Below, in pieces: positions 1,374 through 33,880 of a stretch of DNA of 64,000 bases. Location: assembly GCA_965541585.1 (NCBI GenBank), contig CBEUCH010000002.1, positions 128,001 to 192,000 on the forward strand, given 5' to 3'. Each line of letters begins with the position of its first letter. Position 1 is the first letter of the stretch. Source of the stretch: an uncultured bacterium. Its GTDB lineage: Bacteria; Zixibacteria; MSB-5A5; UBA10806. Both the position numbers and the translations under genes were made by a program. Under the pieces are notes generated by a model. It had not been told where the DNA came from. It saw nothing but the letters and a program-made list of their open reading frames with translations, and did not search any database.

Positions 1374-1495
1374 TACGTCTCGCAAACACCGAAAACCCTT
1401 GACATTCTCGTAGAATTAGTTATCCATATTAATAGATAAGTGTAATTTTCATCTACGATTGGCAACAAGGATAAATACTTCTTAGAGAGGACGTT

Positions 1496-3601
1496 ATGAA
1501 AAGGGCTAAAATTTTATTACTGGCGATATTTTGCCTGTCATTCGCCGGTTCTGCATTTGCCCAGAACGTCGAGTATGTCTCATCAACCCTCTGGTCGAAT
1601 GTTAGGGATGCAGAAATCGTTGGAGGCTACGCCTATTGCGTATTCCTTAATGGCCTGGTTGTTCTTGATGTATCAGACCCGGCTTCCCCTGCTTTCGTCA
1701 GCCAGCTTTATCTTCAAGGCATGGGAGAAGGCATTGACATTGATGGTAACTATGCCTATGTGGCTGATTGGACTGGTCTGGAGATAATCGACATCAGCGA
1801 CCCCACCCGGCCGAGTTGGGTTGCAGGTTATGACACGCCGCATCATGCTTGGGATGTTTTCATATCAGGCGATTACGCCTTTGTGGCTGATGAATCTTCC
1901 GGCCTGCAGATAATCGACATCAGCGACCCTGCCGAGCCGGGTTGGGTTGGAGATTATGACACGCCGGGTTATGCTTTAGGCGTTTTCGTCTCCGGCGAAT
2001 ACGCCTTTGTGGCTGATAGTTATTCCGGACTGCAGATAATCGACATCAGCAACCCCACTCACCCGAGTTGGGTTGGAGATTACGACGCGCTGGATCGGGC
2101 TCGGGACGTTTTCGTATCGGGCGGATACGCCTATGTGGCTGAGGGCAGTTATGGTCTGCAGATAATCGATGTTAGGGACCCCGCCCAGCCAGCTTGGGTT
2201 GGAGATTATGATACGCCGGGTTATGCTGAGGACGTTTTCGTATCGGGCGATCACGCCTATGTGGCTGATGGCCTTTCCGGTCTGCAGATAATTGACATCA
2301 GCGATCCCGCCCAGCCGGGCTGGGTTGGAGATTATGACACGCCGGGTTCTGCTAGCGGCGTTTTCGTCTCCGGGGAATACGCCTGTGTGGCTGATCATTC
2401 CGGTCTGCAGATAATCGAGATCAGCGACCCCGCCCAGCCGGGTTGGGTCGGAGAGTATGATGCGCCGCGTGGTGTTTATGGTGTTTTCGTCTCCGGCGAT
2501 TACGCCTATGTAGCTAATTACAATTCGGGTCTGCAGATAATCGACATCAGCGACCCTGCCCAGCCGGGTTGGGTTGGAGATTATGACACGCCGGGTTCGG
2601 CTTGGGGCGTTTTCGTAGATGGTGATTACGCCTATGTGGCTGATGCGTTTTCCGGCCTGCATATAATCGACATCAGCGACCCTGCCCAGCCGAGTTGGGT
2701 TGGAGATTACGACACGCCGGATCGGGCTTGGGACGTTTTCGTATCGGGCGATCACGCCTATGTGGCTGATGAAGATTCGGGCCTGCAGATAATCGACGTC
2801 AGCGACCCCGCCCAGCCAGCTTGGATTGGAGATTATGACACGCCGGGTCGAACTCTTGGCGTTTTCGTCTCAGGCGATTACGCCTATATGGCTGATGGCG
2901 ATTCCGGTCTGCTGATAATAGATATCAGCGATCCCGCTCAGCCGGGCTGGGTTGGAGAGTATGACACGCCGGGTTATGCTTTAGGCGTTTTCATATTGGG
3001 CGACTACGCCTATGTGGCTGATGGCGGTTCCGGTCTGCTGATATTCGACATCAGCAACCCCGACCAGCCAGGTTTGGTCAGTGGTTATAATACGCCGGGT
3101 GGCGCTTATGGTGTTTTCGTCTCCGGCGATTACGCCTATGTAGCTGATTACAATTCCGGTCTGCGGATAATCGATATCAGCGACCCTGCCCGGCCGAGTT
3201 GGGTTGGAGATTATGACACGCCGGGTTCGGCTTGGGCCGTTTTCGTAGATGGTGATTACGCTTACGTGGCTGATTGGGCTTCATTAATTATTCTCAGGTT
3301 CGCTCAGACTCATGTTGACCAACCACATAACAAACCCCATAGATTTTCCCTCTCGCAGAACTACCCCAACCCCTTCAACCTCTCCACCACTATTGGCTAT
3401 AGTCTGCCTGAGGCCGGCGATGTCACCATTGACATATACGATTTACTCGGCCGCAAGGTTGAGACGCTTATTTCAGGAAAGCAACCAGCCGGACTTCATT
3501 CAATCCTCTGGGAGGCCGGGGACATGCCCTCGGGGATATATTTCTACAGGATTCAGGCGGGTGATTATGCGCAAGCAAGAAAATGTATTCTTTTGAAATA
3601 A
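1496..3601 (+). CDS. secreted LVIVD-repeat double beta-propeller protein with C-terminal FlgD/T9SS-A-like sorting domain
   Basis: Signal peptide; 14 YAYVA..GLQIIDISDP blades of about 42 aa; SQNYPNPFN...RKCILLK tail. Confidence 0.9.
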   Translation: MKRAKILLLAIFCLSFAGSAFAQNVEYVSSTLWSNVRDAEIVGGYAYCVFLNGLVVLDVSDPASPAFVSQLYLQGMGEGIDIDGNYAYVADWTGLEIIDISDPTRPSWVAGYDTPHHAWDVFISGDYAFVADESSGLQIIDISDPAEPGWVGDYDTPGYALGVFVSGEYAFVADSYSGLQIIDISNPTHPSWVGDYDALDRARDVFVSGGYAYVAEGSYGLQIIDVRDPAQPAWVGDYDTPGYAEDVFVSGDHAYVADGLSGLQIIDISDPAQPGWVGDYDTPGSASGVFVSGEYACVADHSGLQIIEISDPAQPGWVGEYDAPRGVYGVFVSGDYAYVANYNSGLQIIDISDPAQPGWVGDYDTPGSAWGVFVDGDYAYVADAFSGLHIIDISDPAQPSWVGDYDTPDRAWDVFVSGDHAYVADEDSGLQIIDVSDPAQPAWIGDYDTPGRTLGVFVSGDYAYMADGDSGLLIIDISDPAQPGWVGEYDTPGYALGVFILGDYAYVADGGSGLLIFDISNPDQPGLVSGYNTPGGAYGVFVSGDYAYVADYNSGLRIIDISDPARPSWVGDYDTPGSAWAVFVDGDYAYVADWASLIILRFAQTHVDQPHNKPHRFSLSQNYPNPFNLSTTIGYSLPEAGDVTIDIYDLLGRKVETLISGKQPAGLHSILWEAGDMPSGIYFYRIQAGDYAQARKCILLK
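1750..3275 (+). repeat. intragenic 126-bp tandem repeat array with high DNA identity
   Basis: gataatcgacatcagc at 1783 and 1909 (period 126), recurring with few changes through the array. Confidence 0.95.
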
Positions 3602-3647
3602 GATAGAGCTCAGTTGTTGGGGGATAAATCCATACGGATCCGCAGGA

Positions 3648-3674
3648 CATGCTCAGGTCTTCGACCAGAGCATG
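3648..3674. repeat. REP-like hairpin
   Basis: CATGCTCaGGTC-ttc-GACCaGAGCATG imperfect palindrome just inside the right direct repeat. Confidence 0.55.
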
Positions 3675-3688
3675 CCACCCGCCCGCGT

Positions 3689-3735
3689 CGACACCACGAC
3701 AATACTTATTTGGCCTTGTCACAAAGCTTCACAAA
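3689..3735. repeat. 47-bp direct repeat, right copy (contains the oligopeptidase stop codon)
   Basis: Matches 1289-1335; encodes FVKLCDKAK* on the minus strand. Confidence 0.95.
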
Positions 3736-5526
3736 TGAGTCGACATCCGCCAATGAGCGCGCCACTGCATCTCGCCAGAAATCCTCTTTTGTCAGATCGA
3801 CATCCATATGTTTTCCGGCTATATCTTCGGTGGTCATTCTTCCGGTGTCGGCGAGTAAAGCACGGTAATTTTTTGCAAAAGCCGATCCCTCTTTCATGGC
3901 GCGGTCGTAAACGCCGCTGGCGAACAGGAATCCGAAAGTATATGGAAAATTGTAGAATGGAGTTCCCGTTATAAAGAAGTGCAGCTTCGACGTCCAGAAT
4001 AACGGGTGATACCCCTCGTCCTGGTCAAGCAGGCCCATGAAAGCTTCGTTCTGCGCCTCAATCATCATCTCCGAAAGACGTTCTCTTCCGACAATCCCGC
4101 TCTTACGCTCTTCGTAAAACCTGGTGTCGAACAGGTACCGGGTATAGATATTAGCGAAATAGGTGAGGGGCCATTGAAGTTTTTGATCCAGAAGCATCAG
4201 TTTTTCATCGGGGTCGTCCGATATCTCGAAAGCAGCATCGGTGACGCGAAGCTCGTTAAAGATGGAGGCAGTCTCCGCCAGATTCATGGGATATTTCTGA
4301 GCGAACGGTGGCTCGTCCCTCAGAACAAATCCGTGATAGGCGTGTCCCAATTCATGGGCCAGCGTTCCCAGACCGTCGAAGTTACCGGTAAAGGTCATGA
4401 ATATCCTCGATTCCTTCCGGATGGGTATCCTCGAGCACCATCCGCCCGCGCCTTTCCCGGAGCGGTCCTCGGCTTCTATCCAGCGCTTTTCAAGTGCATT
4501 GCGGGAAAATTGGCCCATCTCCGCAGAGAAAGTGTTCAGATGCTCGACGATGAAATCGCCGGCGTCGGTGAAAGAGAATTTCTTCGAGGATTTTCCGAGC
4601 GGCGCAGTTTGATCATACCAGCAAAACTTATCGATGCTTAATAGTTTCATCTTGGCTTTTACATAATCCGCAATCTTTGCCCTGCCTTTTACAATGGCCT
4701 GCCACATGGCATCGAGCGTCTCCCGTTTTAACCGGCTGCCTAATAAAGGTTCGAGAAGCGGGGAATCCCAGTTGCGATTCTTATAGATGGAGAGTCGAAA
4801 ACCTGCCTGTGAATTGAGCGCCATTGCCGCCAGGTTAGCCTGTGGCTCCCAGGCTTTCTCCATTTTTACAAATGCGTCGCGGCGCACTTCTCTTTCCGGC
4901 TCTGACATCCTGGCAGCATTCTGACCGAGAGAGATCTCCTTTTTCTCGCCATTCTCTTCGATTTCAACACGCAGATCCCCGGCCATCTTGTCGTAAAGCC
5001 TGTTCCAGGCGTGATAACCGTTGACGGCCAGCTCCAGCGTCAGCTTTTCCTGGGCCTCCGGCATCTTCAACCTCGCATGATCGCGCATTTCATTCAAAGA
5101 GAAACTGATGGCAGCAATATCTTCTCTCTTAACCAGCCTGGCCCAGGATTCGTCGCTCTGATTTTTGGAAAATGATTCCAGGGTGGCATTGAGCATACTC
5201 CACCTGGAATAATGATCATCGATCTCGGCTTCGATCCTATGGGCCTCATCGTCATTGACATCCTGGCTGGTCAGGCATCCCGCAAAAGCACCGGCTAAGT
5301 GCAATCTCTCATACAGGCTTTGCTGTTCCAGAATCCAGGCGGCCCAATCCCCGATACTTTTATCGCTGTCGAGCTTATCAGGTAACCCTTCAAGAGTCTT
5401 TTTAGCGATATCAAGATCTTCGACGATTTTCATCCTGAAATCGGCGTATTCTTTTGATTTCGATCCTCCCGGGAATATCGATTCTATCTCCCACGTGGGG
5501 GCCTTCTCTTTATCTTGAGGCTTCAT
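3706..5526 (-). CDS. pepF: M3 family oligoendopeptidase F
   Basis: TLAHELGHAYH zinc motif, LAETASIFNE, FYNFPYTFGFLF. Confidence 0.9.
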   Translation of the reverse strand: MKPQDKEKAPTWEIESIFPGGSKSKEYADFRMKIVEDLDIAKKTLEGLPDKLDSDKSIGDWAAWILEQQSLYERLHLAGAFAGCLTSQDVNDDEAHRIEAEIDDHYSRWSMLNATLESFSKNQSDESWARLVKREDIAAISFSLNEMRDHARLKMPEAQEKLTLELAVNGYHAWNRLYDKMAGDLRVEIEENGEKKEISLGQNAARMSEPEREVRRDAFVKMEKAWEPQANLAAMALNSQAGFRLSIYKNRNWDSPLLEPLLGSRLKRETLDAMWQAIVKGRAKIADYVKAKMKLLSIDKFCWYDQTAPLGKSSKKFSFTDAGDFIVEHLNTFSAEMGQFSRNALEKRWIEAEDRSGKGAGGWCSRIPIRKESRIFMTFTGNFDGLGTLAHELGHAYHGFVLRDEPPFAQKYPMNLAETASIFNELRVTDAAFEISDDPDEKLMLLDQKLQWPLTYFANIYTRYLFDTRFYEERKSGIVGRERLSEMMIEAQNEAFMGLLDQDEGYHPLFWTSKLHFFITGTPFYNFPYTFGFLFASGVYDRAMKEGSAFAKNYRALLADTGRMTTEDIAGKHMDVDLTKEDFWRDAVARSLADVDSFVKLCDKAK

Positions 5527-5643
5527 TTCGCAAACTCCTCCGGTTCAAAAAAACGTTTATCAATTGTTATTCAGGTAGATAATAGTGTGCATCCTGAATA
5601 TCAAGGGGAATATTCGTTTCCTGCGGCCAGAGCAACTTCCCAC

Positions 5644-5671
5644 AAAAAAAAGCCCCGACCGGGGCCGGGGC
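5644..5671 (-). terminator. Rho-independent terminator of the C25 gene
   Basis: Minus strand gccccggc-cccg-gtcggggc followed by T8. Confidence 0.75.
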
Positions 5672-5694
5672 AAAGTCTTCGATCGCGCAAATTG

Positions 5695-10029: not shown

Positions 10030-10062
10030 GAATCCTCCCGAGATTGACTCAACGTAATTCTC

Positions 10063-11424: not shown

Positions 11425-11466
11425 ACTCCCTTCCGGAAAACCGGGCAGATTCCCTCATATACACTA

Positions 11467-11558
11467 AAGCAACATTCCTCGGGAATAACCACACTGCGAA
11501 TATCCCGAGGAAATATTGCAGCTTCACCTAAATATAGATGTTGCCCTGTTATTGTCAA
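11467..11558 (-). promoter_or_regulatory. sigma70-type promoter plus long 5'UTR hairpin of the lipoprotein-C25 operon
   Basis: TTGACA-16-TATATT on the minus strand; perfect inverted repeat ttcctcggga (11475-11484) / tcccgaggaa (11503-11512). Confidence 0.55.
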
Positions 11559-11797
11559 GTGCGAAGCATCGCGTTCAATGAATAATATCGCAGCATCATG
11601 GTTACAACATGATATGGAGGGTAGAATGTTCCAGAAATAGGATCGGAAGGATTTTTATTTGAGCACAGGTATCCTGTTAACCGGCCGGGGGAGATTTCCC
11701 CGGTCGCAGCAGGGGCATCGTCAATTCTCGAAATCAAGAGATCGCAAAAGCATTCGGATTGAAGCCGGCGACCTCTTTTGCCCTGACCCGGGCAGGT

Positions 11798-14114: not shown

Positions 14115-17102
14115 TTAATCCGCTGTGGACTCCCGGCTAATCCCGGTTCTGGGATTTAATGAAGGGATTACAAGCAGCCCGTCCTCTCCCGGTGCTATCA
14201 AGCCGCCCTGCCCGGGGCAATCGGGACATCCGCTACCCGGCACAATTAAACCTCTGTATAAACCGATCTCGGTAACCACGTCGCCGAGCTCATTGGGTAC
14301 GCAGCTGCCGTTCGGGTCGGCATCAGGAGTGAAATCCTCGCCGTGGGACGGACAGTGGCACTCGTAAGTCGCTGTGATCGTGCCTCTGTACATACCGATC
14401 ATGGCGATAGCGTCGCCCAGCTCCAGCGGGACGCCGTTGTGGTCGCAATCGCCCACGAGATATTGGCAACTCGAAAATTCGCCGCACGGCGGTGCCAGAT
14501 TATCGCAGAGGGTGCTGGCGGCGAACCTGGTGCCGTCGCAGTCCAGAATGTGGACGTCATCCTCGCAATCACCGCTGGCGTCGTCGCAGCAGGCGCCGGC
14601 AGGGCCGACGACCTGGCAATCTACGATATCGATCTGGCCGATATAGGCTGCGCGGGCGATCATGTCCTCCTCGTTTGCGGCGCCGATGATTGCGATTTCA
14701 ATGCTTACCGACTCCCCGTCATTGAGCGTATAGGGGCCGGTGCTCAAAAGCGATGACATATCATCATACCAATCATCTGCCACACGGTCGCCATCGTAGC
14801 TCATGAGGGTGTAAAGATCCTCCATGAGCCAACCACCGACCGGTGGGTAGATGTAATCCTCCTGGCTGACGGCAGTCATGGAACGCAGGTTGACCTCATC
14901 GTCGTTAATCAGGCAAAGCCCCATAATATAAGAGAAGTCCGTAGCTCCCTGATACATGAGCTTATTTCCTCGGTCAAATACAACTGTGTCGAAAGAAGGA
15001 TAGACAACGTCCCAATCGAAGTAGACACCGGCGTAGTAGTCGCTGATTGTCGCGCCGGAATTATTGGTGATGGTGAAAATATGGATGAAGATATCGCCGG
15101 CCTGCACTACATCGGGGGGCTGGAATCCGATACCACAGTAATTGATATCAACACCACCCATAACGCCTTCATCGTCATAGGCGCACGTCGGGTGGAAGGG
15201 ATCCAATAGATTCAGGCTCTCAGTTCCCCTGTAGCGATAGCAATCGGTGGGAGTAGCGCCTGTCTGATTGTAATGAGAAAACATCCTCGCAGGACCATCT
15301 CCCATTACGAAGGTAGCGCCATGATTTGCCGGATCGATGCCGTAGCTATAATTATCATCCTGGTAATCGGGGTCGCCGAGCGGTCCGTAATTGCTGACCG
15401 CACAGTCCGGTATGTTGCCGGTCTCGGCCAGCCCCCGAGGTGTCATGGCTTCCTCGATCCTCAGATCGAAACTGGAAATACAATCAGGAGAGGGATAGCT
15501 ATCGATCATTATCCAGTAAGTGCCGGGCTGCAGGGTCAAATCTTCTAAACCGTGGGGAGCAGCTACGTTTGATGTCGATGAGGCAATACATTCGTTCGAA
15601 TCGGGCGGGCAAAAATCGTCTACCAGGATTCCTGTAAACGCATCGTCATGTGGGTCGAGAGTGATATCGAGCGTTATGACCTCAGAAACCGTAAACTCAT
15701 AGACGATATCCTCGCCGCCGTCATAGTCGTCAAGACAGGTATCGTCTTGGTCGTTTCCCGCGCCGCACGTCGTCCGACCTATATCGGAAAATGGCAATTG
15801 CGAGTTTATGTCGCCGATAACCACGTCCGGGTTGCATGGGGGCGTCGGCGTACATTCGACCCACATAGTATAATCGTTACCCAGAACACCGTTTCCATCA
15901 CATGCCAGATCCTCGGACCAGTCACTCGGCGCGATCCTTATCCAGTATATTCCGGGAAGCGCTTGCTCCAGTATCCGCGCCGTTTGGCAGCGGCCGACGA
16001 TCCGGGAGGTATACTGATAATCCTCGCAATCTTCGTTGCCCACGTCGTCGATGAATAGAAGCTGGAGCGGGAATTCGGCAATACCTCCAATTTCCAGATC
16101 AGATGGTGCAGTCACCTCGAACCTGTACCAGTCGATGTCGCGGTAAAGCCGATCCTCGCCCGGATTATCCGGATCTTCGCCCAGGAAAACGCCGCTCTTG
16201 CCGCATATTGTGTCGCCACATGCAATTTCCGTCCAGATCGGTTCCAGCGGCGGAACGGCATTACATCCGATGTTGAACTGATCGATATAATTATAGTGGC
16301 AATCCGGTTCGGCCTCGGGAATGCCGTTATCGGGGCAGGTAAGTTCGCATAACTGATCGGTGATCACAACGTCATCGAAAGAACAGGCATAACCCCATTC
16401 GGCGTAATAATGCATCGTCAGGGTATGTATATTGCCATCGGCGTAGTCGTCCAGTATCACCGAACGAATTCCCATAAATGGAATATTATCAGGCGCCTGG
16501 ACGAGATCGGCCTGTTCGCCATCGATAAGGACCTCGAAGTAATCCACGGAAGGGACATAAGCCCTGAAATACAACCAGTAGCTCAGAGTTAGCTGGCTGC
16601 CAACAGGAGTTGAAAAGTCGACGGAAATTTCCTCATCTGTGGTCGATCCGAAGCCACCGCCGTAGGAATCTGAACCGACCATATAGCCGCCGCCCTGGTT
16701 CTCGATGTGACCCCAGGCGTAGTCCCAGGGATCCGGGCGAATTACCCAGTCCTCGGCGCCGCTGCCATCGCCATTGCTGACAGCGGTCCAGGCCGGGTCG
16801 TTTGTGAAATCGCCGTCCTCGAAATCATCGTAAAGCCAGTCAGTCAGGAAAAGGGGACGTTGCCCCGGTAAGAGGATAGAGGAATCGAAGAACCGTTCGG
16901 TCTTTATAGGGCTTTGCCGCACAGTGCCCCGGTTACTTGCTTGAGGCTTAACTGCGGTGGTCGGCAAACGAAGAATGCCCGTTCTCGCTGGTTCGGCCAG
17001 GGCCGAAACCGTCTTGCCTTCAGCAGCAAGAACGGCCTGCCAGGCGAACAAAGCGAGGGCGAGAGACGAAGTAAATCTTATCTTCATATCAATCTCGGCC
17101 AC
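14115..17102 (-). CDS. large secreted Cys/Asp-rich multidomain protein with dockerin-like C-terminus
   Basis: Signal peptide; PPC-like segments (GEDIVYEF, PGTYWIMID); GACC repeat; C-terminal CQYLVGDCDHNG...ADPNGSC. Confidence 0.65.
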   Translation of the reverse strand: MAEIDMKIRFTSSLALALFAWQAVLAAEGKTVSALAEPARTGILRLPTTAVKPQASNRGTVRQSPIKTERFFDSSILLPGQRPLFLTDWLYDDFEDGDFTNDPAWTAVSNGDGSGAEDWVIRPDPWDYAWGHIENQGGGYMVGSDSYGGGFGSTTDEEISVDFSTPVGSQLTLSYWLYFRAYVPSVDYFEVLIDGEQADLVQAPDNIPFMGIRSVILDDYADGNIHTLTMHYYAEWGYACSFDDVVITDQLCELTCPDNGIPEAEPDCHYNYIDQFNIGCNAVPPLEPIWTEIACGDTICGKSGVFLGEDPDNPGEDRLYRDIDWYRFEVTAPSDLEIGGIAEFPLQLLFIDDVGNEDCEDYQYTSRIVGRCQTARILEQALPGIYWIRIAPSDWSEDLACDGNGVLGNDYTMWVECTPTPPCNPDVVIGDINSQLPFSDIGRTTCGAGNDQDDTCLDDYDGGEDIVYEFTVSEVITLDITLDPHDDAFTGILVDDFCPPDSNECIASSTSNVAAPHGLEDLTLQPGTYWIMIDSYPSPDCISSFDLRIEEAMTPRGLAETGNIPDCAVSNYGPLGDPDYQDDNYSYGIDPANHGATFVMGDGPARMFSHYNQTGATPTDCYRYRGTESLNLLDPFHPTCAYDDEGVMGGVDINYCGIGFQPPDVVQAGDIFIHIFTITNNSGATISDYYAGVYFDWDVVYPSFDTVVFDRGNKLMYQGATDFSYIMGLCLINDDEVNLRSMTAVSQEDYIYPPVGGWLMEDLYTLMSYDGDRVADDWYDDMSSLLSTGPYTLNDGESVSIEIAIIGAANEEDMIARAAYIGQIDIVDCQVVGPAGACCDDASGDCEDDVHILDCDGTRFAASTLCDNLAPPCGEFSSCQYLVGDCDHNGVPLELGDAIAMIGMYRGTITATYECHCPSHGEDFTPDADPNGSCVPNELGDVVTEIGLYRGLIVPGSGCPDCPGQGGLIAPGEDGLLVIPSLNPRTGISRESTAD

Positions 17103-18582: not shown

Positions 18583-18792
18583 TTACTCTTCCTCCTTTGA
18601 CCGTCTACCGTAGTAGATCCAGAGATGAACGATGTAGGCGATGATAATCATACTGATCAAAGTGCCCGCAAGATCCATAGTGGTAATTGAACCGGCTATC
18701 AGAACAACGCCGGTTATACCGGCGATAGCAACTACAAAAGCCACAGCCAGGACCCTGAAGAACACCGAGGGTATGAAAATCGGTTCGCCCAT
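18583..18792 (-). CDS. small two-TM membrane protein coupled to the IPTL-CTERM gene
   Basis: TGATG stop/start overlap; two hydrophobic helices and a basic tail. Confidence 0.6.
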   Translation of the reverse strand: MGEPIFIPSVFFRVLAVAFVVAIAGITGVVLIAGSITTMDLAGTLISMIIIAYIVHLWIYYGRRSKEEE

Positions 18793-21626
18793 CAGTTGGC
18801 TCTTGTCAAAGCAGTTTTACGCCTGCGAACAATAGCGATAGTTCCGGCGGTCAGCAACATCAACCCAAGTATGATCATACCCCATTCGGAGAGGGTGGGG
18901 ATGGCTTCGACGACATCATGCGGCGGCCAGATATCATGCTGCGCGCAACCGGCAGGTTCTACAAGCGATGTTATGGGTATAGAGTGATTCACCGCCGGTT
19001 CGGCGCATTGGACACACGGTATTGCCTGAAGTCCGGGTATTAGATCAACAGCGCTGGGACCGATCGGTATGTCAGGTATATCGTCGCAATTACTCACTAA
19101 ATCGCCGACGCTTGATGTATACACGCCGAAGCCCGGATCTGAAAACATCCAGTGACCGTCTTCGATATTCATTAAATCAATGGCCGGGATTCCGTAATCA
19201 CCGTAATCAACATAGTATTCTAAAGCGTCGGATACCCGGGTAAAGACGATTTTCGGGACTACGGGTACATAGGCAAAAAACGTGCCTCCTTCTTCACAGA
19301 CCCGGTCAAAGTTCATTCCGCCTGTTGGCTGCCCGCGGGATTCTGACAGGCACACCTTGACATCCCACGCTTCAGGATTTTGGCCGCCGTTGTAAGTTAC
19401 CGTTATAGGTTGACTACTCACTAAACTCAGCGCCACTATCTCGATATCTATATTATGATCCTGAGAGGGACACTGAGGTAGATTTGCGACTCTACTTCGT
19501 TTGATTATTGTGTCGGTGGGCCCTAAATTCCCGTTAGTCGCCAGTGGCTCACCCTCTAAAGCAATAGTACCGGCGAAAGGATCCGAGCCGGGCCCGAAGA
19601 AGTCAGCCGGTATCGGGAGTGTGCTTTCCCCGCAGCCGAGATTCACAAATGTATTGTAGCCTTCCGGCGTTTCCCACAAGTCGTAAACCGGATCTTCTTG
19701 CACTGGACAATCTACATCAACACAGTTCAGGCCGGGGTAGAAGACGCCGCCGTTATCCTCGCAGATAGACTGGGTTTCCATTGTGCATAAACCATCGGGC
19801 CAGCAGCAGGCGCCTGTTTCCTGAACCGGTTCACTGGTGATGCAGAACGACAGGTCGAGCGATTGCTGACCCGACGGCAGGCATTCGTGCTCGATAATCC
19901 CGGGCTCGTTATCCCAGATTACGAAGTTAAATCCCCTGACATCTACGGAGACCCACTCCGGGTTATACTCCTCAATTAAAAACCCGAAGAACTCAAATAT
20001 TTCATAACCGTTTGGAAGGTCGCTCATAACAACCGGGAAGCGCTCAATATGTATTTCATCAGTCGGTTCAGTCGGTGGGGGCTCACCTGGCGGCCACTCA
20101 GGACCTGACCAGTTGATGGCGATCTCAACCCAGGCGGGAGCCCCGGGATCTAATTTCCATACCGAGCCCATTATGGAGATTTCCTTGTAGCGCGTGAGAT
20201 CGAGCGGGTCATTGTAGAACCAGATATTCCACCAACCGCTGGGGTACCAGAACCATCCATTGATACCACCAGGGCCATTGTAATAATCGGTACCTCCGCT
20301 CATCCCGGGAACGAGCTGCCCGCTTTGATCCATCCCCACCCAGAAGGAGTTGACGACCGGCCCGCCGCCTCCACCGGGCTCGTAAATCTCCGTCCAGAGG
20401 TCAGGAGGAAGCGGGGCATCGGGATCCGGGCCCCAAACCGCATCGTCCATCCAGTGATCCTGGGTTGATTTCCATCCCCAGTGTGTGTTAACCGGATCGA
20501 CGACATCGGCCGAAATCCTCAACCAGTAAATTTGGCCGACTGTCTGCACGCATGGTTCAGGCAGGAAGTAATCGTAACGGAAATATTGCTGGTGGTCACC
20601 GGGGATAATCTCGCCCTGGACAGGATCATACCATCCCTGTGGAGACGGATCCATAAGGGTGGTGGTGTATTCCCCTTCCAGTATATACATCGGGGGGCAG
20701 ACAATTTGGCCCGGTACGCTCCAGCCGTTTGGTCCCACGGGGATATTGTCGTGGATAGTGATCCAAAAGCCCCGGAGTTGGCCGATATCATCATGCCTCC
20801 ACGAACCCCACCAATGGATATCCTCGAGCTGGCCCGTCTCCGTGCACTGCCAGTCATCCGCCAGAGAGATGGGAGCGGTGGCATTAACGTCCCAACCGTT
20901 GGGATCCGGCAGCTGCGGGAAATGCATCTTGTGGTTTGCGCAATCACCGTCTTGGCAATTGGGAGAGTTTGTCTCGGTATCTACCCAGAAAAGCGGAGCG
21001 CCGCCAGAATAATAACTGCTCCACATATACCAAGTGCCCCCAGAATACGCCCAGTGCTCACATGGGACCGGGGGACAGATGAGTGGTTCATCCATTAAAA
21101 ATGAAGGAAGGCTTCCCCCAGGATCGCTATATTCAATACCGATATAGACCGGTCCGTTAACACAGCAGGGAGTCGAATAAGTTAATGGACCCACAGTGGG
21201 ATACTCATAAGTGGCGGCATCACAGATAAAAGTCTCACGGCAGAGTTCCGCGCCGGGTCCCGCGCATGGATCTCCGGGAATCAGCATATCGTATACCACG
21301 AAATCAACCTGAACCGGAAACGGCAAAGCGCCATCGTCATAAAGAGTAATCCACAGTGTAGTTATTTCAAGAGGGTATGTTGGAGCCGGGCAAACCGCCC
21401 ATGGATCATAATATGTGATTGCGCGGTCGCCAGTAACCAAGCCTGGATTATAGTAGCCCGGAATATTGCATGTCTTCGTAAGCAGGCAATAATCAAGAGT
21501 GGTCTGCGGCTGTTCGATAGGCAGTACCTCGCCTATTCTCGAGCCTTTTAGTTCACCCTTCGCCATGGCTGCAGTGCCGAGGATCAGGACAAGGCCGAGG
21601 GTTAAAATCAATGACTTTTTAAGCAT
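18792..21626 (-). CDS. secreted surface protein with IPTL-CTERM sorting signal
   Basis: Ends IPTLSEWGMIILGLMLLTAGTIAIVRRRK; start reassigned to ATG 21626 (MLKKSLIL signal peptide, ggagaa RBS). Confidence 0.85.
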   Translation of the reverse strand: MLKKSLILTLGLVLILGTAAMAKGELKGSRIGEVLPIEQPQTTLDYCLLTKTCNIPGYYNPGLVTGDRAITYYDPWAVCPAPTYPLEITTLWITLYDDGALPFPVQVDFVVYDMLIPGDPCAGPGAELCRETFICDAATYEYPTVGPLTYSTPCCVNGPVYIGIEYSDPGGSLPSFLMDEPLICPPVPCEHWAYSGGTWYMWSSYYSGGAPLFWVDTETNSPNCQDGDCANHKMHFPQLPDPNGWDVNATAPISLADDWQCTETGQLEDIHWWGSWRHDDIGQLRGFWITIHDNIPVGPNGWSVPGQIVCPPMYILEGEYTTTLMDPSPQGWYDPVQGEIIPGDHQQYFRYDYFLPEPCVQTVGQIYWLRISADVVDPVNTHWGWKSTQDHWMDDAVWGPDPDAPLPPDLWTEIYEPGGGGGPVVNSFWVGMDQSGQLVPGMSGGTDYYNGPGGINGWFWYPSGWWNIWFYNDPLDLTRYKEISIMGSVWKLDPGAPAWVEIAINWSGPEWPPGEPPPTEPTDEIHIERFPVVMSDLPNGYEIFEFFGFLIEEYNPEWVSVDVRGFNFVIWDNEPGIIEHECLPSGQQSLDLSFCITSEPVQETGACCWPDGLCTMETQSICEDNGGVFYPGLNCVDVDCPVQEDPVYDLWETPEGYNTFVNLGCGESTLPIPADFFGPGSDPFAGTIALEGEPLATNGNLGPTDTIIKRSRVANLPQCPSQDHNIDIEIVALSLVSSQPITVTYNGGQNPEAWDVKVCLSESRGQPTGGMNFDRVCEEGGTFFAYVPVVPKIVFTRVSDALEYYVDYGDYGIPAIDLMNIEDGHWMFSDPGFGVYTSSVGDLVSNCDDIPDIPIGPSAVDLIPGLQAIPCVQCAEPAVNHSIPITSLVEPAGCAQHDIWPPHDVVEAIPTLSEWGMIILGLMLLTAGTIAIVRRRKTALTRAN

Positions 21627-21728
21627 TAAATTCTCCAATTCTAATTGCTTGAATTTATTGTGCTGTCGAGTCTCAATATTCGGCAACTTTAATATCAGGT
21701 GCAGAGACTCAACACCGCATCTGGATGT

Positions 21729-22726: not shown

Positions 22727-22755
22727 AAGATAGGCGACCCACATTTACTTGTCAA
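22727..22755 (-). promoter_or_regulatory. sigma70-type promoter of the RAPP/IPTL transcript
   Basis: TTGACA-17-TATCTT on the minus strand, about 310 nt upstream of ATG 22415. Confidence 0.55.
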
Positions 22756-26705: not shown

Positions 26706-26775
26706 TATCCGGCAAGATAGTGGTTGGTCTTTCAGGAAGATGCGCAGCATTTAACATGTTGAAAGACAAAATGAT

Positions 26776-26799
26776 AAGGGCGCAGATGACGCCCTTTTC
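26776..26799 (+). terminator. terminator-like hairpin
   Basis: aagggcg-cagatga-cgccctt followed by T residues. Confidence 0.55.
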
Positions 26800-26875
26800 A
26801 TATTGACGAAAAAACGTTTTTGATTATATTGAATTGATGAAAGAAATTATCGATAAGTTGTTCAAGGAGTTTTCG

Positions 26876-28729: not shown

Positions 28730-28890
28730 CGGCGGCACCAGTCTTGGTTTTACCGCCAGACCAAACTTGTTGATTTCCGGCAAGCACAAAAGGCTTGACT
28801 TCTAAATATCTTTTATTACAATATTTATAGGCATAATCATGAAATAGCAGCGCGATTTGACCGCGAGAATAAGTACCTCAATTGGAGGTT

Positions 28891-31056
28891 ATGATGAGAA
28901 GGACTAAAGTTTTATTGTTGGCGATGTTATGCTTTTCAATCGCCGGTTTAGCATCCGCCCAGAATGTTGAGTATGTCAACTCAACGCTCTGGAATGGCTT
29001 GGGGGAGGTCAAAATCGTCGGCGATTATGCATACTGTGCCTTTTACAATGGCTTGATGATTCTTGATGTCACGAATCCGACCTCTCCATCTGTGGTGGGC
29101 CAGGTAGTTGGTCAAGGTCATGGAAATGGATTAGACGTTTCAGGTGATTACGCGTACCTGGTTAATACGTACGAGGATCTGCAGATAATAGACATCGCAA
29201 ACCCTGCCCTCCCGATATTATTAGGAAGTTACAGCACGCCGAGTGACGCTTCCGGTGTTTTTGTGGTCGATAACTACGCATACATAGCGGATGGCTATTC
29301 TGGCCTGCAGATCATAGACGTTGCCGATCCTATGAATCCGACATTTGTGGGGAGCTACGACACGCCGCACTTTGCCAAGGACATCTTCGTGGTTGGTAAT
29401 TACGCCTACGTGGCTAATTCATCTACTGGCCTGCTAATAATCGATATCGCGGATCCTGAAGATCCAACATTGGCGGGAAGCTACAATACTCCAGGATACG
29501 CTCAAGCAGTCTTTGTGGTCGGCGATTATGCATATGTTGCGGATGGTAGCTCCGGCGTACGGATAATCGACATCTCTAACCCGGCCTACCCCACACTGGA
29601 AGCAAGTTATGACACGCCAGGTTATCCTTCTGACATATATGTAATGGGTAGCTACGCTTTTGTAGCTGATGGTGATTCTGGCCTGTATATAATCGATGTC
29701 TCGAATCCTTCGAACCCCACTCATGTGGGGAATCACGATACGCCTAGGGATGCCACAGGGGTTTTCGTTACCGGCGAGCATTGTTATATTATTGACTATG
29801 ATCTTGTCCTGCAGATAATTGAGATCACCGATCCTTTCAATCCGATACTGGCAGGGAGTTTCGATACGCCTGGTTATGTACAGAGTGTTTTCCTTGCCGG
29901 GAATTACGCCTATGTTGCAAATCACATTTCAGGCTTGTGGATAATCGATATCAGCGACCCCGCCAGCCCAACACCGGTGGGATTTCACGATACACCGGAT
30001 AATGCTCGTGACGTTTTCGTGTCAGATAGTTACGCCTACGTGGCTGCTCATATTTCCGGCCTGCAGATAATAAACGTCGCCGATCCGGCCAACCCGACAT
30101 GGGTAGGAGGTTACGATACACCTGGTTCTGCGACGAGCGTTTTCGTCGACGACAATTACGCTTATGTGGTTAATAGTATTAGTGAGGGTGGCCTGCAAAT
30201 TATCGACGTCTCCAATCCTGCCAGCCCGACACTGGCGGGAAGTTATGATACGCCCAATAATGCTTATGGGATTTTCGTTGACGGCGGTTACGCTTACGTA
30301 GTTGAGGGATATGCCAGCGTGGAGAGTTGGGGTCGACTGCACATAGTTAGCATTGCCGACCCTGCGAATCCGGCTCTGATCGGAATTTATGAAACAGGTT
30401 TGCCCGGAGGTGTCTTTGTTGCCGGTAGTTATGCCTATGTAGTTTGCACTGATTATCGTCATTTCGAACCCGATATTTATAGTCTGGTGATAATTGATAT
30501 CGATGACCCTGCGAATCCCACAACAGTTGGAAGTTATGAAACACCAGAATTTGCCAGCCGCGTAGTTGTGGCTGGCAATTACGCCTATTTGGCTGTCAAT
30601 TATTATGGCGGCCTGCAGATAGTCGATATTGCCGATCCTGCGAATCCAACTCTGGCGGGAAGCTACGACACACCGGGCTGGGCTCGCGGCATTTCAGTGG
30701 ACGGCGATTTTGTATATGTAGCTGATCGCCATTCGCTAATGGTCCTTAGTTTTGGACCTGAAAATGATATTGAGGAGTGGAATGATCTCCCCCGAGAGTT
30801 CTCACTTGGGCAAAACTACCCCAACCCGTTCAATGCTTCCACCCTGATCGAGTACAATTTGCCTTCAGCTTCCAATGTAAGAATCGAAATCTACGACATC
30901 CTTGGCCGCAAAGTTGAAACGCTTGTGGACCAAAAAAAGCAAGCCGGTTATCATCAGATTACGTGGAATGCCTTTGACAAATCCTCGGGAATGTATTTTT
31001 ATAAGGTTCGGGCGGGGGAGTATACCGGGACGAAGAAGATGGTGTTGTTGAAGTAG
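28891..31056 (+). CDS. secreted LVIVD-repeat double beta-propeller protein with sorting tail (paralog of 1496..3601)
   Basis: AQNVEYVNSTLW N-terminus shared with the first gene; 14 blades; GQNYPNPFN...KKMVLLK; ggaggtt RBS. Confidence 0.9.
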   Translation: MMRRTKVLLLAMLCFSIAGLASAQNVEYVNSTLWNGLGEVKIVGDYAYCAFYNGLMILDVTNPTSPSVVGQVVGQGHGNGLDVSGDYAYLVNTYEDLQIIDIANPALPILLGSYSTPSDASGVFVVDNYAYIADGYSGLQIIDVADPMNPTFVGSYDTPHFAKDIFVVGNYAYVANSSTGLLIIDIADPEDPTLAGSYNTPGYAQAVFVVGDYAYVADGSSGVRIIDISNPAYPTLEASYDTPGYPSDIYVMGSYAFVADGDSGLYIIDVSNPSNPTHVGNHDTPRDATGVFVTGEHCYIIDYDLVLQIIEITDPFNPILAGSFDTPGYVQSVFLAGNYAYVANHISGLWIIDISDPASPTPVGFHDTPDNARDVFVSDSYAYVAAHISGLQIINVADPANPTWVGGYDTPGSATSVFVDDNYAYVVNSISEGGLQIIDVSNPASPTLAGSYDTPNNAYGIFVDGGYAYVVEGYASVESWGRLHIVSIADPANPALIGIYETGLPGGVFVAGSYAYVVCTDYRHFEPDIYSLVIIDIDDPANPTTVGSYETPEFASRVVVAGNYAYLAVNYYGGLQIVDIADPANPTLAGSYDTPGWARGISVDGDFVYVADRHSLMVLSFGPENDIEEWNDLPREFSLGQNYPNPFNASTLIEYNLPSASNVRIEIYDILGRKVETLVDQKKQAGYHQITWNAFDKSSGMYFYKVRAGEYTGTKKMVLLK

Positions 31057-31088
31057 GCCTTTAGTTATGTTTAAAGAGGGAGACAAGT

Positions 31089-31196
31089 ATGGGCGATAAG
31101 GGAAAAAAGGATAAGGGTAAAAGAGAGCAGCAGAAAAAGAGCAAGCATAGCTTATTGGAAAAGCGAAAACTTAAAAAAGAAAAAAAGAATAAATAG
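31089..31196 (+). CDS. small, very basic 35-aa protein
   Basis: MGDKGKKDKGKREQQKKSKHSLLEKRKLKKEKKNK*; RBS gagggag; followed by a terminator; below the ORF-track cutoff. Confidence 0.65.
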   Translation: MGDKGKKDKGKREQQKKSKHSLLEKRKLKKEKKNK

Positions 31197-31227
31197 AACC
31201 TAGAATAACTGAGAATGACAAAACCAT

Positions 31228-31257
31228 GGGGAGTTACATCGACTCCCCTCTCTTTTT
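31228..31257 (+). terminator. Rho-independent terminator
   Basis: ggggagt-tacatcg-actcccc followed by tctcttttt. Confidence 0.7.
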
Positions 31258-31326
31258 GCCCTGTCACTCGCCGGCTGGGCATTTGCCCGGCATGTTAAGT
31301 ATGCGGGTGGCTACGATACGCCGGTC
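31254..31326 (+). pseudogene. collapsed relic of an LVIVD-family gene
   Basis: DNA aligns with 1529-1577; reads LSLAGWAFARHVKYAGGYDTP versus LSFAGSAFAQNVEY...GYDTP. Confidence 0.7.
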
Positions 31327-31435
31327 AACATTAAAGGCTTGACTTCTAAGTAGTTTCTATTATCTATAGTTGTAGACACAATCAGGATATTGCAGTTGCG
31401 GTTGGCAACAAGGATAAATACCTCGCCCGGGGGAC

Positions 31436-33880
31436 ATGATGAGAAGAGTCATAATTATTTCGCTGGCATCTCTTTTGTTGTTGGCCGGAAATGCCTTTAC
31501 CTTTGAGCCGTTATTTCATGCCAGGATTGATTACGGGGCCGGGGATGGTCCTAATTCAGTTTTCGCGGTTGACCTCGATAACGACGGCGACAATGACCTG
31601 GCCGTGGCTAATGAGAACTCCAACAATGTCTCAGTCATCCTGAATAACGGTGACGGGACATTTCAGGCGGCGGTTAATTACGGGGCCGGGGAAGCTCCTG
31701 TTTCGGTTTTCGCGGTTGACCTCGATGGCGATGGCGACAATGACCTGGCGGTGGCTAATAGGTTTTCCGACAATGTCTCAATCCTTCTGAATAACGGTGA
31801 CGGGACATTTCATGCGGCGGTTAATTACGGGACCGGGGATGAACCTAGTTCAGTTTTCGCGGTTGATCTCGATGGCGATGGCGATATTGACCTGGCAGTG
31901 GCTAATGCTGGCTCCAGCAATGTCTCAGTCCTTCTGAATAATGGTGACGGTATATTTCAGGCGGCGGTTAATTACGGGGCCGGGATTGGACCTCGTTCAG
32001 CTTTCGCGGTTGACCTTGATGGCGATGGCGACAATGACCTGGCCGTGGCTAATGAAGGTTCCCACAATGTCTCGGTTCTTCTGAATAACGGTGACGGGAC
32101 ATTTCAGGCAGCGGTTAATTACTTGGCCGGGGATAGACCTGTTTCAGTTTTCGCGGTTGACCTCGATGGCGTTGGCCACAATGACCTGGCCGTGGCTAAT
32201 GTTGGTTCCGACAGTGTATCAGTCCTTCTGAATAACGGTGACGGGACATTTCAAACAGCGGTTAATTATGGGGCCGAGGATTTTCCTTCTTCAGTTTTCG
32301 CAGTTGACCTCGATGGCGATGGCGACAATGACCTGACCGTGGCTAATCGGTATTCCGACAATGTCTCAGTTCTCCTGAATAACAGTGACGGGACATTTCA
32401 AGAGGCGGTTAATTACGGGACCGGGGGTGGTTCTGTTTTAGTTTTCGCGGTTGATCTCGACGGCGATGGCGATAATGACCTGGCAGTGGCTAATGCCGGC
32501 TCCGACAATGTCTCAGTTCTTCTGAATAACGGTGACGGTATATTTCAGGCGTCGGTCGATTACGGGGCGGGGAGTTGGCCTATCTCAGTTTTCGCGGCTG
32601 ACCTCGATGGCGATGGCGACAATGACCTGGCCGTGGCTAATGGTTATTCCTACAATGTCTCAGTACTTCTGAGCAACGGTGACGGGACATTTCAAGAGGC
32701 GGTTAGTTACGAGGCGGCGTATGGCCCCTCGTCAGTTTTCGCAGTTGACCTCGATGGCGACGGCGACAAAGACCTGGCTGTAGCTAATGATGGTGGCTTT
32801 TATGGCTACGAATGTGTCTCGGTGCTTCTGAATAACGGTGACGGTATATTTCAGGCGGCAGTCATTTATGATACCGGAGATGGTCCTGTTTCTGTTTTCG
32901 CGGTTGACCTCGATGGCGATGGAGACAAAGACCTGGCCGTGGCTAATTATGACTCCGAAAATGTCTCAGTCCTTCTGAATAACGGTGACGGGACATTTCA
33001 GCCGGCAGTTAACTACGGGGCCGGTAATTCGCCTACCTCAGTTTTCGCGGTTGACCTCGATGGCGATGGCGATAATGACCTGGCCGTGGCTAATGAAGGT
33101 TCCCACAATGTCTCGGTTCTTCTGAATAACGGTGACGGGACATTTCAGGCAGCGGCTAATTACAGGGCCGGAGATTTTCCTTCTTCAGTTTTCGCGGCTG
33201 ACCTCGATGGCGATGGCGACAAAGACCTGGCCGTGGCTAATCGTTTTTCCTACAATGTCTCAGTCCTTCTGAGCAACGGTGACGGGACATTTCAGGAGGC
33301 GGTTAATTACGGGGCCGGAGATTTTCCTTCTTCAGTTTTCGCGGTTGACCTCGATGGCGATGGCGACAATGACCTAACCGTGGCTAATCGTTTTTCCTAC
33401 AATGTCTCAGTCCTTCTGAACAACGGTGACGGGACATTTCAGGCGGCGGTTAATTACGGCGCCGGAGGTTTTCCTTCTTCAGTTTTCGCGGTTGACCTCG
33501 ATGGCGATGGAGACAATGACCTGGCCGTGGCTAATTATCGCGCTAAAGATATTTCAATATTGATAAATCTTTCAAGCACGACAGGTGTGGATAATTCTCC
33601 CGAAGCATCTTTGCCTGAGAGTTTCGGTATTTCTCAGAACTATCCCAACCCCTTTAACGCCTCTACAGTAATTCAATACAATATACCTTTAGCTTCCGAT
33701 GTAATAATCGACATTTATGATATCCTCGGCCGCAAGGTTGAGACGCTGATTCAGGGAGAACAGCAAGCCGGGTATCATCAGATAACATGGGATGCGAAAG
33801 GTCAATCTTCCGGCATGTATTTTTACCGTATTCAGGCGGGGGAATATTCTGAAGCCAAAAAGATGTTGTTGTTGAAGTAG
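31436..33880 (+). CDS. secreted FG-GAP/VCBS-repeat double beta-propeller protein with sorting tail
   Basis: 14 DLDGDGDNDLAVAN repeats of 49 aa; SQNYPNPFN...KKMLLLK. Confidence 0.92.
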   Translation: MMRRVIIISLASLLLLAGNAFTFEPLFHARIDYGAGDGPNSVFAVDLDNDGDNDLAVANENSNNVSVILNNGDGTFQAAVNYGAGEAPVSVFAVDLDGDGDNDLAVANRFSDNVSILLNNGDGTFHAAVNYGTGDEPSSVFAVDLDGDGDIDLAVANAGSSNVSVLLNNGDGIFQAAVNYGAGIGPRSAFAVDLDGDGDNDLAVANEGSHNVSVLLNNGDGTFQAAVNYLAGDRPVSVFAVDLDGVGHNDLAVANVGSDSVSVLLNNGDGTFQTAVNYGAEDFPSSVFAVDLDGDGDNDLTVANRYSDNVSVLLNNSDGTFQEAVNYGTGGGSVLVFAVDLDGDGDNDLAVANAGSDNVSVLLNNGDGIFQASVDYGAGSWPISVFAADLDGDGDNDLAVANGYSYNVSVLLSNGDGTFQEAVSYEAAYGPSSVFAVDLDGDGDKDLAVANDGGFYGYECVSVLLNNGDGIFQAAVIYDTGDGPVSVFAVDLDGDGDKDLAVANYDSENVSVLLNNGDGTFQPAVNYGAGNSPTSVFAVDLDGDGDNDLAVANEGSHNVSVLLNNGDGTFQAAANYRAGDFPSSVFAADLDGDGDKDLAVANRFSYNVSVLLSNGDGTFQEAVNYGAGDFPSSVFAVDLDGDGDNDLTVANRFSYNVSVLLNNGDGTFQAAVNYGAGGFPSSVFAVDLDGDGDNDLAVANYRAKDISILINLSSTTGVDNSPEASLPESFGISQNYPNPFNASTVIQYNIPLASDVIIDIYDILGRKVETLIQGEQQAGYHQITWDAKGQSSGMYFYRIQAGEYSEAKKMLLLK
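31528..33570 (+). repeat. intragenic 147-bp tandem repeat array with high DNA identity
   Basis: ttacggggccgggga at 31531 and 31678 (period 147); 14 units. Confidence 0.95.

Follow-up and report, generated by a model that had tools for sequence, protein, structure and literature searches.

The Vpma and Vsp lipoproteins of Mycoplasma agalactiae and M. bovis keep a conserved 5′ untranslated region while most of the coding sequence is not conserved, and the account in PMC2268961 depicts a multigene family of surface proteins, many of them with tandem repeats, that share a conserved signal peptide and are expressed from a single active promoter within one locus rearranged by Xer1 recombinase inversion. 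The KLIKK proteases of Tannerella forsythia, which are type IX secretion system (T9SS) cargo, carry unrelated central domains between shared flanks, a pattern that the corresponding account (PMC4404884) attributes to a recent common origin. Here, we describe a leader of ∼120 nucleotides (nt) that precedes three genes for predicted secreted β-propeller proteins (g1, g2, and g3) in a 64,000-nt stretch of DNA from an uncultured member of the Zixibacteria (contig CBEUCH010000002.1, positions 128,001 to 192,000; hereafter, the window) and that recurs ahead of other exported-protein genes of the same genome.

The likeness to the Vpma and Vsp genes, as far as PMC2268961 describes them, lies in the conserved 5′ untranslated region, in the organization as a multigene surface-protein family, and in the tandem repeats of many members. 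By contrast, each copy of the present leader has a complete promoter half, the copies lie on 10 contigs and in direct orientation where adjacent, the signal peptides vary by cargo class, and Pfam scans of the open reading frames (ORFs) of the window revealed no recombinase family. With the KLIKK genes the system has in common the shared flanking modules and a gene set that is present or absent between close relatives; the account in PMC4404884 describes a virtually identical C-terminal domain and an upstream A/T-rich tract of 50 bp, whereas here the 5′ module is a 120-nt promoter-leader and the tails are ∼58% identical. The leader is different from both described arrangements in combining a complete promoter per copy with a generic, non-identical tail and no inversion system.

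No description of such a leader was found in the literature on Zixibacteria, type IX secretion, cargo promoters or untranslated regions, or β-propellers. Bacteria that possess a T9SS secrete proteins in great number and variety, and the joint expression of subsets of such a secretome is known mainly from a few cultured Bacteroidota. A strongly conserved leader that marks 14 exported-protein genes of unrelated folds delineates a candidate regulon from sequence alone. It can be examined readily in reporter assays, and it allows gene gain, gene loss, and module exchange in the surface proteome to be followed.

The leader and the genes behind it

Exact searching of the window placed a 20-mer, TTGGCAACAAGGATAAATAC, at 1459-1478 and 31402-31421 and a 17-mer, AAAGGCTTGACTTCTAA, at 28789-28805 and 31333-31349, in agreement with a sequence-only reading of this DNA that had reported both identities. 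Each string has two matches in the window; the 20-mer was found in no shuffled sequence, and the 17-mer never occurred twice or more in a shuffle (mean 0.01, maximum 1). The regions upstream of g1, g2, and g3 align end to end with a mean column identity of 76% over 132 columns, which bears out the further claim of that reading that the three genes have homologous noncoding leaders, here aligned over ∼120 nt. The leaders and genes are as follows (aa, amino acids; E, expectation value).

1379 to 1498, plus strand: leader of g1; 92.5 bits, E 2.3e-27; predicted −35 box TTGACA, 16 nt, TATCCAT, conserved untranslated stretch, Shine-Dalgarno sequence, and ATG
1496 to 3601, plus strand: g1, 701 aa; signal peptide at aa 1-22, 14 LVIVD blades at aa 25-602, and T9SS C-terminal domain at aa 623-698
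28775 to 28896, plus strand: leader of g2; 58.5 bits, E 9.3e-17; the most diverged copy of this genome
28891 to 31056, plus strand: g2, 721 aa; signal peptide, 14 LVIVD units, and T9SS C-terminal domain at aa 643-718
31321 to 31441, plus strand: leader of g3; 78.1 bits; 5′ half g2-like and 3′ half of the majority type
31436 to 33880, plus strand: g3, 814 aa; signal peptide, 14 FG-GAP units of 49 aa, and T9SS C-terminal domain at aa 736-810

BLASTN followed by iterated nhmmer over the 3.52-Mb genome (40 contigs) converged on 14 sites with E values from 5e-27 to 1.4e-14, the next match being at E 0.069. These sites are spread over 10 contigs, and copies on the same contig share one orientation. 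When each half of the leader was searched alone, the same 14 (5′ half) and 13 (3′ half) sites were recovered and no others at E ≤0.1; the two halves therefore never occur alone.

Four of the 14 leaders precede LVIVD genes (g1, g2, C17:77975, and C29:2129), and two precede FG-GAP genes (g3 and C3:226738). Right-handed β-helix genes follow five further copies, one of them ending in IPTL-CTERM instead of a T9SS tail, and the remaining copies head a cohesin and dockerin gene with a β-helix-type N terminus, a truncated 119-aa ORF with the same type of N terminus and no Pfam match, and a gene for an Omp28-like T9SS cargo protein (L002:1483-2638, contig C17). In the latter, the reading frame breaks off at a run of G that follows the signal peptide; a frameshift, an error of sequencing, and a site prone to slippage are all candidates for the cause. 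The ORF behind the leader is intact in 12 of the 14 copies. The genome-wide search that the sequence-only reading had proposed thus returned 14 copies rather than three, all ahead of exported proteins and none before a housekeeping gene. Leader-bearing genes account for 4 of the 22 LVIVD ORFs of the genome, 2 of the 9 FG-GAP ORFs, 7 of the 32 ORFs with a β-helix N-terminal cap, and 12 of the 187 ORFs with a T9SS tail. Within the window, this tail is also present on two C25 peptidases and one M14 carboxypeptidase, and no leader match was found ahead of these genes.

A sequence-only covariance model of the leader was searched against 61 genomes, with stricter filters applied because more than 40 genomes were searched. 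The leader was detected in 10 of them, namely the present genome and 9 of the 13 others of its family, and in 0 of the 47 genomes outside the family, whether these belong to the sister family (10 genomes) or elsewhere in the class (37 genomes). The present genome has 14 matches, both other genomes of the genus have it (13 and 4), and seven more of the family have 10, 3, 1, 1, 1, 1, and 1; the conserved blocks of the leader extend across four genera. In a metagenome collection, a strict leader pattern matched one contig, where an FG-GAP gene follows. The cargo in relatives comprises LVIVD, FG-GAP, arylsulfotransferase (three genes), M14 carboxypeptidase (one gene), DUF7948, DUF3466, and β-helix proteins, the β-helix genes having a T9SS tail, IPTL-CTERM, or no recognized tail. 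Across the present genome and its relatives, the cargo represents at least nine unrelated domain types, enzymes included, and in one other genus all five annotated copies (three genomes) stand ahead of LVIVD genes.

An alignment of 48 leader matches, drawn from the window and 41 further loci, was used to define the anatomy of the element. The leader runs directly into an ORF with a signal-peptide-like start in 41 of the 48 matches, and in four more such an ORF begins a few bases downstream; the other three are a truncated leader, a leader with a 26-codon ORF, and a weak match. In genome G001, a complete leader is immediately preceded by a truncated copy (L115:2135-2231; model positions 7-104, without the ribosome-binding site), a tandem partial duplication. 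Inspection of the alignment reveals, in order, the conserved blocks AAA..CTTGACAT; T.GAAT; TATC(T/C)AT; TT.CATCTGCGAT; ATAA-ATAC-CTC; and GGAGGATAT.ATG. The pentamer TTGAC is present in 46 of 48 leaders, 40 of 47 scored rows have TATnnAT at exactly 16 nt past the −35 hexamer (one has it at 17 nt), GGAGG is present in 37 of 48, and 43 of 48 end on ATG or GTG. In terms of parts, a σ70-like −35 box (CTTGACAT) is followed by a conserved TAGAAT inside the 16-nt spacer and by the TATC(T/C)AT box, the likely −10 element. Beyond it lie ∼65 nt of conserved untranslated sequence (TTnCATCTGCGAT ... ATAAATACCTC) and then a strong ribosome-binding site and start codon, GGAGGATATnATG.

No Rfam 15 family matched at its gathering score anywhere in the window, and a tRNA scan of the window found none. 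The consensus RNA fold of the 14 leaders contained only a 4-pair hairpin, with no covariation. Several other candidate features were considered and set aside. A palindromic operator, TTATCTAT-N4-ATAGATAA, spans the −10 region without mismatch in one copy but is absent from several. The spaced motifs of σ54, extracytoplasmic function (ECF), or FliA-type promoters were missing by eye when compared with the consensus sequences, and no terminal inverted repeats of a mobile element were seen.

Propeller arrays and export signals

The sequences of g1, g2, and g3 are those expected of ordinary type IX secretion cargo genes, each predicted to encode a Sec signal peptide, a 14-blade array, and a T9SS domain. 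Pfam assigned LVIVD (PF08309; tandem 42-residue repeats forming four-stranded blades) to g1 (E 4.5e-182, 14 stretches) and to g2 (E 3.7e-138, 12 stretches), and FG-GAP_3 to g3 (E 6.3e-131, 13 stretches). Counting by motif spacing gave 14 units in g1 at a spacing of 41-42 residues, 14 units in g2, and 14 DxDxDG units in g3 at a spacing of 49 or 53 residues. Membership of g1 and g2 in the LVIVD family is indicated by Pfam, by motif spacing, and by the g1 model described below, and g3 has the tandem repeats with DxDxDG loops that define the FG-GAP families (PF13517 and PF01839). The two repeat types and the count of 14 blades in all three genes given by the sequence-only reading are therefore both confirmed. 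LVIVD repeats were first described in predicted Methanosarcina cell-surface proteins (PMC2447325). From these, g1 and g2 show no difference in kind; they are typical members, with the 42-position repeat of the Pfam model, that carry a T9SS tail.

An AlphaFold2 model of g1, made from an alignment of 32 sequences, had a mean predicted local distance difference test score (pLDDT) of 89.9 and comprised 56 strands, equivalent to 14 × 4, followed by a seven-strand sandwich. Tandem-propeller proteins were its best matches in a Foldseek search. The best global fit was to a chain of the 90S pre-ribosome (6zqd_UL), with a template modeling (TM) score of 0.66 and a root mean square deviation of 4.8 over 650 columns, and the listing also includes the Utp21 tandem WD domain (4nsx) and the extracellular domain of BT4673 (3ott). 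These proteins are 7 + 7 double rings, and the matches support an arrangement of the g1 array as two 7-bladed rings. Searching the g1 sequence against solved structures gave only two marginal matches (E 0.0035 and 0.0058). The model of g3, made from an alignment of 3 sequences, had a pLDDT of 37 and no usable fold, so the two 7-bladed rings proposed for all three genes find support in the fold matches of g1 only.

The third Foldseek match to the g1 model was PorZ from Porphyromonas gingivalis (5m11; E 5.4e-18, TM 0.56; PMC5121618). PorZ has 11% sequence identity to g1, the blades of which are LVIVD repeats. Because the genome has about eleven LVIVD ORFs of the size of g1, the LVIVD genes cannot all encode a single PorZ-type component of the machinery, and no evidence was found of a role for g1 in the secretion apparatus. 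PorZ itself presumably consists of two β-propellers followed by a T9SS C-terminal domain. Also listed was 2ymu (“Structure of a highly repetitive propeller structure”), which resembles g1 in having 14 nearly identical blades with few variable loop positions. Highly repetitive, recently amplified arrays of this kind can form two 7-bladed rings and have been linked to the hypervariable WD40 arrays of fungal HET-E-type receptors. In contrast to such arrays, the present ones belong to the LVIVD and FG-GAP families, are predicted to be T9SS-secreted, are not fused to intracellular signaling domains, and have a ratio of nonsynonymous to synonymous substitution (dN/dS) of ∼1 in the loops.

The blades within a gene are much alike, with identities of 84% in DNA and 78% in protein for g3 (12 regular units) and 80 and 71%, respectively, for g1 (10 units). 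Variation from blade to blade in both genes is concentrated at a few positions in two alternate loops, which the up-and-down topology of the blade would place on the same face. For the G000/G001 orthologs, a single pair per gene in which register shifts between blades are possible, dN/dS was 0.48 overall, 1.02 at the variable positions, and 0.35 elsewhere in g1, and 0.59, 0.90, and 0.40, respectively, in g3. Two neighboring housekeeping genes gave values of 0.17 and 0.13 in another genome pair (with G002). The arrays of g1 and g3 evolve fast, and their loop positions look unconstrained, with dN/dS at ∼1 and not above.

Across the genome, LVIVD ORFs form two main size groups of ∼704-756 residues (10-13 matches) and ∼428-463 residues (3-6 matches), which fits units of 14 and 7 blades. 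Among the six leader-bearing propeller genes, five have 7 or 14 blades; the sixth, C17b, has 12 matches to the profile hidden Markov model, and its length would correspond to 14 blades. As the full-length relatives of g1 indicate, LVIVD proteins with 14 repeats are widespread in many phyla of bacteria and archaea. Zixibacteria bins are among these relatives, one ground for calling the present organism Zixibacteria-like.

At the N terminus, all three proteins pass a simple hydrophobicity and charge test for a Sec signal peptide. At the C terminus, they score 35.5, 46.8, and 41.2 bits (g1, g2, and g3, respectively) against the Por_Secre_tail profile (PF18962; cut-off 27), the match ending 3-4 residues before the stop codon. 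Similar signal peptides are present in g1 and g2 (MKRAKILLLAIFCLSFAGSAFAQNVEY and MRRTKVLLLAMLCFSIAGLASAQNVEY), and that of g3 is of another type, in keeping with the general pattern that signal peptides differ according to cargo class; the similarity claimed for all three thus extends to the two LVIVD genes only. The common C-terminal sorting domain was likewise confirmed in all three but is a generic T9SS tail. A tail-profile search of six-frame ORFs of the 3.5-Mb genome found it on 187 ORFs, 184 of them at the C terminus, suggesting a very large predicted secretome. Tail identity among the leader-bearing genes is only ∼58%, and for the tail-coding DNA of g1, g2, and g3 the genome contains 38-41 relatives that are ∼70-73% identical and share exact stretches of ≤30 nt. 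Of the two components of the T9SS machinery that were searched for, the SprA/Sov translocon was matched above its cut-off by a 1971-aa frame, and PorV-like barrels were all below the NCBIfam cut-off (best 87 bits versus 250). Several surface proteins end in IPTL-CTERM instead of the T9SS tail; one of them, at 18792-21686 on the minus strand, also has DUF7901.

Constraint, exchange, and the proposed role of the leader

Constraint was assessed in seven pairs of genes, each pair being best matches between two genomes and treated as orthologs, by setting leader identity against that at 4-fold degenerate third positions.

C6 and G002: leader 0.92, 4-fold sites 0.39
C15 and G001: leader 0.78, 4-fold sites 0.32
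C16 and G001: leader 0.77, 4-fold sites 0.48
g1 and G001: leader 0.87, 4-fold sites 0.78
g3 and G001: leader 0.66, 4-fold sites 0.78
g3 and G007: leader 0.50, 4-fold sites 0.58
C3b and G007: leader 0.65, 4-fold sites 0.69

The leader is far better kept than silent sites in the first three pairs, which speaks for a function.

The similarity of leaders follows neither cargo nor tail, which is the incongruence that the sequence-only reading had proposed to look for. In this genome, leaders are 63% identical where both genes belong to one cargo class (28 pairs) and 62% identical where the classes differ (63 pairs), and a Mantel test shows no relation between leader and tail identities (r −0.14, p 0.73). 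A maximum-likelihood tree built from the 48 leaders requires 23 changes of cargo label as compared with a mean of 24.7 after shuffling, and 32 of the 200 shuffles gave a number as low. Of the four starred branches of this tree, one unites the leader of the C15 β-helix gene with that of the G001 ortholog of g3.

This ortholog (L113:724-3003) is 80% identical to g3 in coding DNA, and the homology begins inside the leader, at window position 31389. Its promoter half matches the C15 leader at 58 of 67 positions and the g3 leader at 38 of 67. The protein ends in a Cys-rich tail of ∼95 residues that has no T9SS domain and no Pfam match at E ≤0.05; a dockerin-like character of this tail was suggested by eye only and was not retained. 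As judged by these alignments, both the promoter half and the tail have been swapped between g3 and its G001 ortholog. The latter has 13 DxDxDG units, not 14, although in a 510-contig draft a collapsed repeat is possible. A related pattern is present in the g3 leader of the window, where the 5′ half is like that of g2 at 57 of 74 positions and like that of g1 at 37 of 72, and the 3′ half is like that of g2 at 27 of 46 and like that of g1 at 34 of 46. The two strings shared with the leaders of g2 and g1 are the two halves of this mosaic pattern.

The reading that we favor, with a probability of roughly 0.6, is that the leader is a lineage-specific shared expression signal for a subset of exported proteins, exchanged between genes. 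The ∼120-nt module, which appears to consist of a σ70-like promoter, a conserved untranslated leader, and a strong ribosome-binding site, would probably provide a common promoter, a target for a common regulator, and efficient translation initiation for one subset of the exported proteome. It is specific to one family of Zixibacteria-like bacteria and is maintained there by purifying selection. As a separable module, it has been moved whole or in half between genes by recombination, and entire leader-cargo-tail genes are gained and lost at fixed chromosomal sites. A number of observations weigh against this reading. The candidate −10 element is a poor match to TATAAT, and a simple σ70 scan did not call the TTGACA/TATCCAT pair, its one weak call lying inside the gene start. 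Promoter activity, the transcription start site, co-expression and co-regulation, and a binding partner of the leader are predicted rather than observed. In the last three ortholog pairs listed above, the leader is no better kept than silent sites; the low value for g3 and G001 is read as replacement, the alternative being weak constraint in some copies. Because 33 of the 45 inner branches of the leader tree are open and its shape is close to that of a star, the test for clustering by cargo is a weak one. The mosaic structure of the g3 leader is of modest significance (best-split Fisher p 5.8e-4 before correction for 41 splits), and faster divergence of the 3′ half of the g2 leader would give the same pattern. 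Finally, all of the relatives are draft metagenome bins.

An alternative, which we consider unlikely, is that the conserved 3′ half serves mainly in control at the level of RNA, as a target of a small RNA or of an RNA-binding protein such as CsrA or through a weak hairpin in which the ribosome-binding site is masked; translation or stability of surface-protein mRNAs would then be set by it, which is compatible with a shared expression signal. Consistent with this, the ∼65 nt between the likely −10 element and the ribosome-binding site are conserved across genera, the sole predicted consensus pairing is of CCUC with GAGG of the ribosome-binding site, and the genome encodes CsrA (82.7 bits, above cut-off). 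A ACAAGGAT stretch in many copies may also resemble the CsrA consensus from in vitro selection (SELEX). However, the 4-pair hairpin has an energy of −3.6 kcal/mol with compensatory changes at 0 of 4 pairs, GGA is present in the relevant stretch of only 24 of 48 copies, Rfam gave no match in the window, and conservation of linear sequence is fitted equally well by DNA recognition. The prospect that the leader functions mainly as a site of recombination or as a portable homology arm, which with conserved tail-coding DNA at the opposite end would allow cargo genes to be traded as cassettes, appears dimmer still; it amounts to the chassis idea on an evolutionary time scale, comparable with the conserved 5′ regions of the mycoplasma vpma/vsp loci. 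The promoter-half swap with its homology break inside the leader, the truncated G001 leader directly upstream of a full copy, the remnant of an LVIVD signal peptide just upstream of the g3 leader, and the presence or absence of whole genes at syntenic sites would all be expected of such an arm. Yet the repeats around g1 copy the end of a neighboring gene, not the leader, and no recombinase family is present among the Pfam-annotated ORFs of window positions 348-35853, where a 995-aa ORF (14115-17102) has no family. Leaders on shared contigs are in direct orientation, every copy has its complete promoter half, and leaders at ∼62% identity with exact tail-DNA runs of ≤30 nt make a poor substrate for frequent homologous exchange. 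A mere relic of gene duplication without a function of its own is very improbable. Neighboring genes do have the most similar leaders (g2 with g3, and C17a with C17b), as tandem duplication predicts, but the coding parts behind the leaders come from unrelated families, three ortholog pairs keep the leader much better than silent sites, and its blocks are conserved across four genera.

The sequence-only reading had envisaged a dedicated expression and secretion chassis that takes interchangeable propeller arrays, yielding an antibody-like repertoire of secreted binders. Leader and tail are indeed common to genes with two propeller types, the near-identical blades vary at few positions in two alternate loops, loop dN/dS exceeds that of the other positions and of the two housekeeping genes (the latter measured against another relative), and the five leader-bearing propeller genes of this genome that can be counted have 7 or 14 blades. 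The three tests proposed with that reading also came out in its favor, but the repertoire does not follow from them: 8 of the 14 leader-bearing genes are not propellers, the cargo in relatives extends to arylsulfotransferases and an M14 carboxypeptidase, and the leader is absent from 18 of 22 LVIVD and 7 of 9 FG-GAP ORFs. The tail, on 187 ORFs here, is in relatives sometimes IPTL-CTERM or unrecognized, loop dN/dS is not above 1, 14-repeat LVIVD proteins are common across bacteria and archaea, one ortholog (that of g3 in G001) has 13 units, and the paralogous leaders, at ∼62% identity, are old. Nor was diversification machinery detected: RVT_1 gave 0 matches to reverse transcriptase in the 98%-complete genome while control genomes matched, there were no promoterless donor copies or silent cassettes among the leader matches, in which both halves occur together with no extra half copies, and the direct orientation of same-contig leaders, each with its own promoter half, is no inversion layout. 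By these counts the repertoire reading is largely refuted, and we regard it as the remotest of the explanations considered; the shared expression signal corrects what was an attractive but unsupported view of a bacterial antibody. A bolder extension of the favored reading, and a doubtful one, is that the leader, besides being a promoter, serves as the 5′ arm in a natural system of cassettes whose promoter half, untranslated half, cargo, and export tail can each be exchanged independently, the untranslated half being the handle for one global post-transcriptional regulator. If true, such a system would let the lineage quickly re-equip a co-regulated surface coat and would constitute a new regulon architecture for T9SS secretomes outside the Bacteroidota.

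Gene turnover and neighboring features

Inspection of the DNA around g1 reveals a pair of direct repeats that are identical at 49 of 51 positions (96%) and lie 2400 nt apart on either side of the leader and gene.

1289 to 1339, no strand assigned: first direct repeat, 51 nt; a spare duplicate of the 3′ end of an M3 peptidase gene (gene on the minus strand)
3689 to 3739, no strand assigned: second direct repeat; genuine 3′ end of that M3 peptidase gene (minus strand, 3706-5526)
31254 to 31303, plus strand: LVIVD signal-peptide remnant, ∼50 nt; 80% identity to g1 DNA at 1529-1577, E 1.2e-4 versus the whole genome

At the syntenic site, g1 is present in G001 and missing in G002 and G007. With its leader, g1 has the structure of a 2.4-kb insertion between 51-nt direct repeats, as indicated by this comparison. 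The adjacent ORF at 348-1217 (289 aa, with a weak aldo/keto reductase match) is present in G007 and missing at the site in G001 and G002, a distribution that is independent of that of g1. The place of g2 and g3, between an M14 peptidase gene and nadC, is taken in G002 by genes on the other strand for a GAF histidine kinase and for a response regulator (L128:2249-4333). The remnant at 31254-31303 sits between g2 and the leader of g3 and has a GGYDTP motif next in frame, which suggests a largely deleted LVIVD gene.

Some smaller features were noted in the same region. On the minus strand, the 995-aa ORF at 14115-17102 has no Pfam family at E ≤0.001. Just after g2, a small ORF of 35 codons (31090-31197) is very lysine-rich (MGDKGKKDKGKREQQKK...) and has no Pfam match. 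A GC-rich hairpin element of 35 nt lies just after g1 (3647-3681), possibly a terminator or else a small repeat; the genome contains it twice more (C12, 100%; C9, 94%), and related genomes have copies at 90-97% identity.

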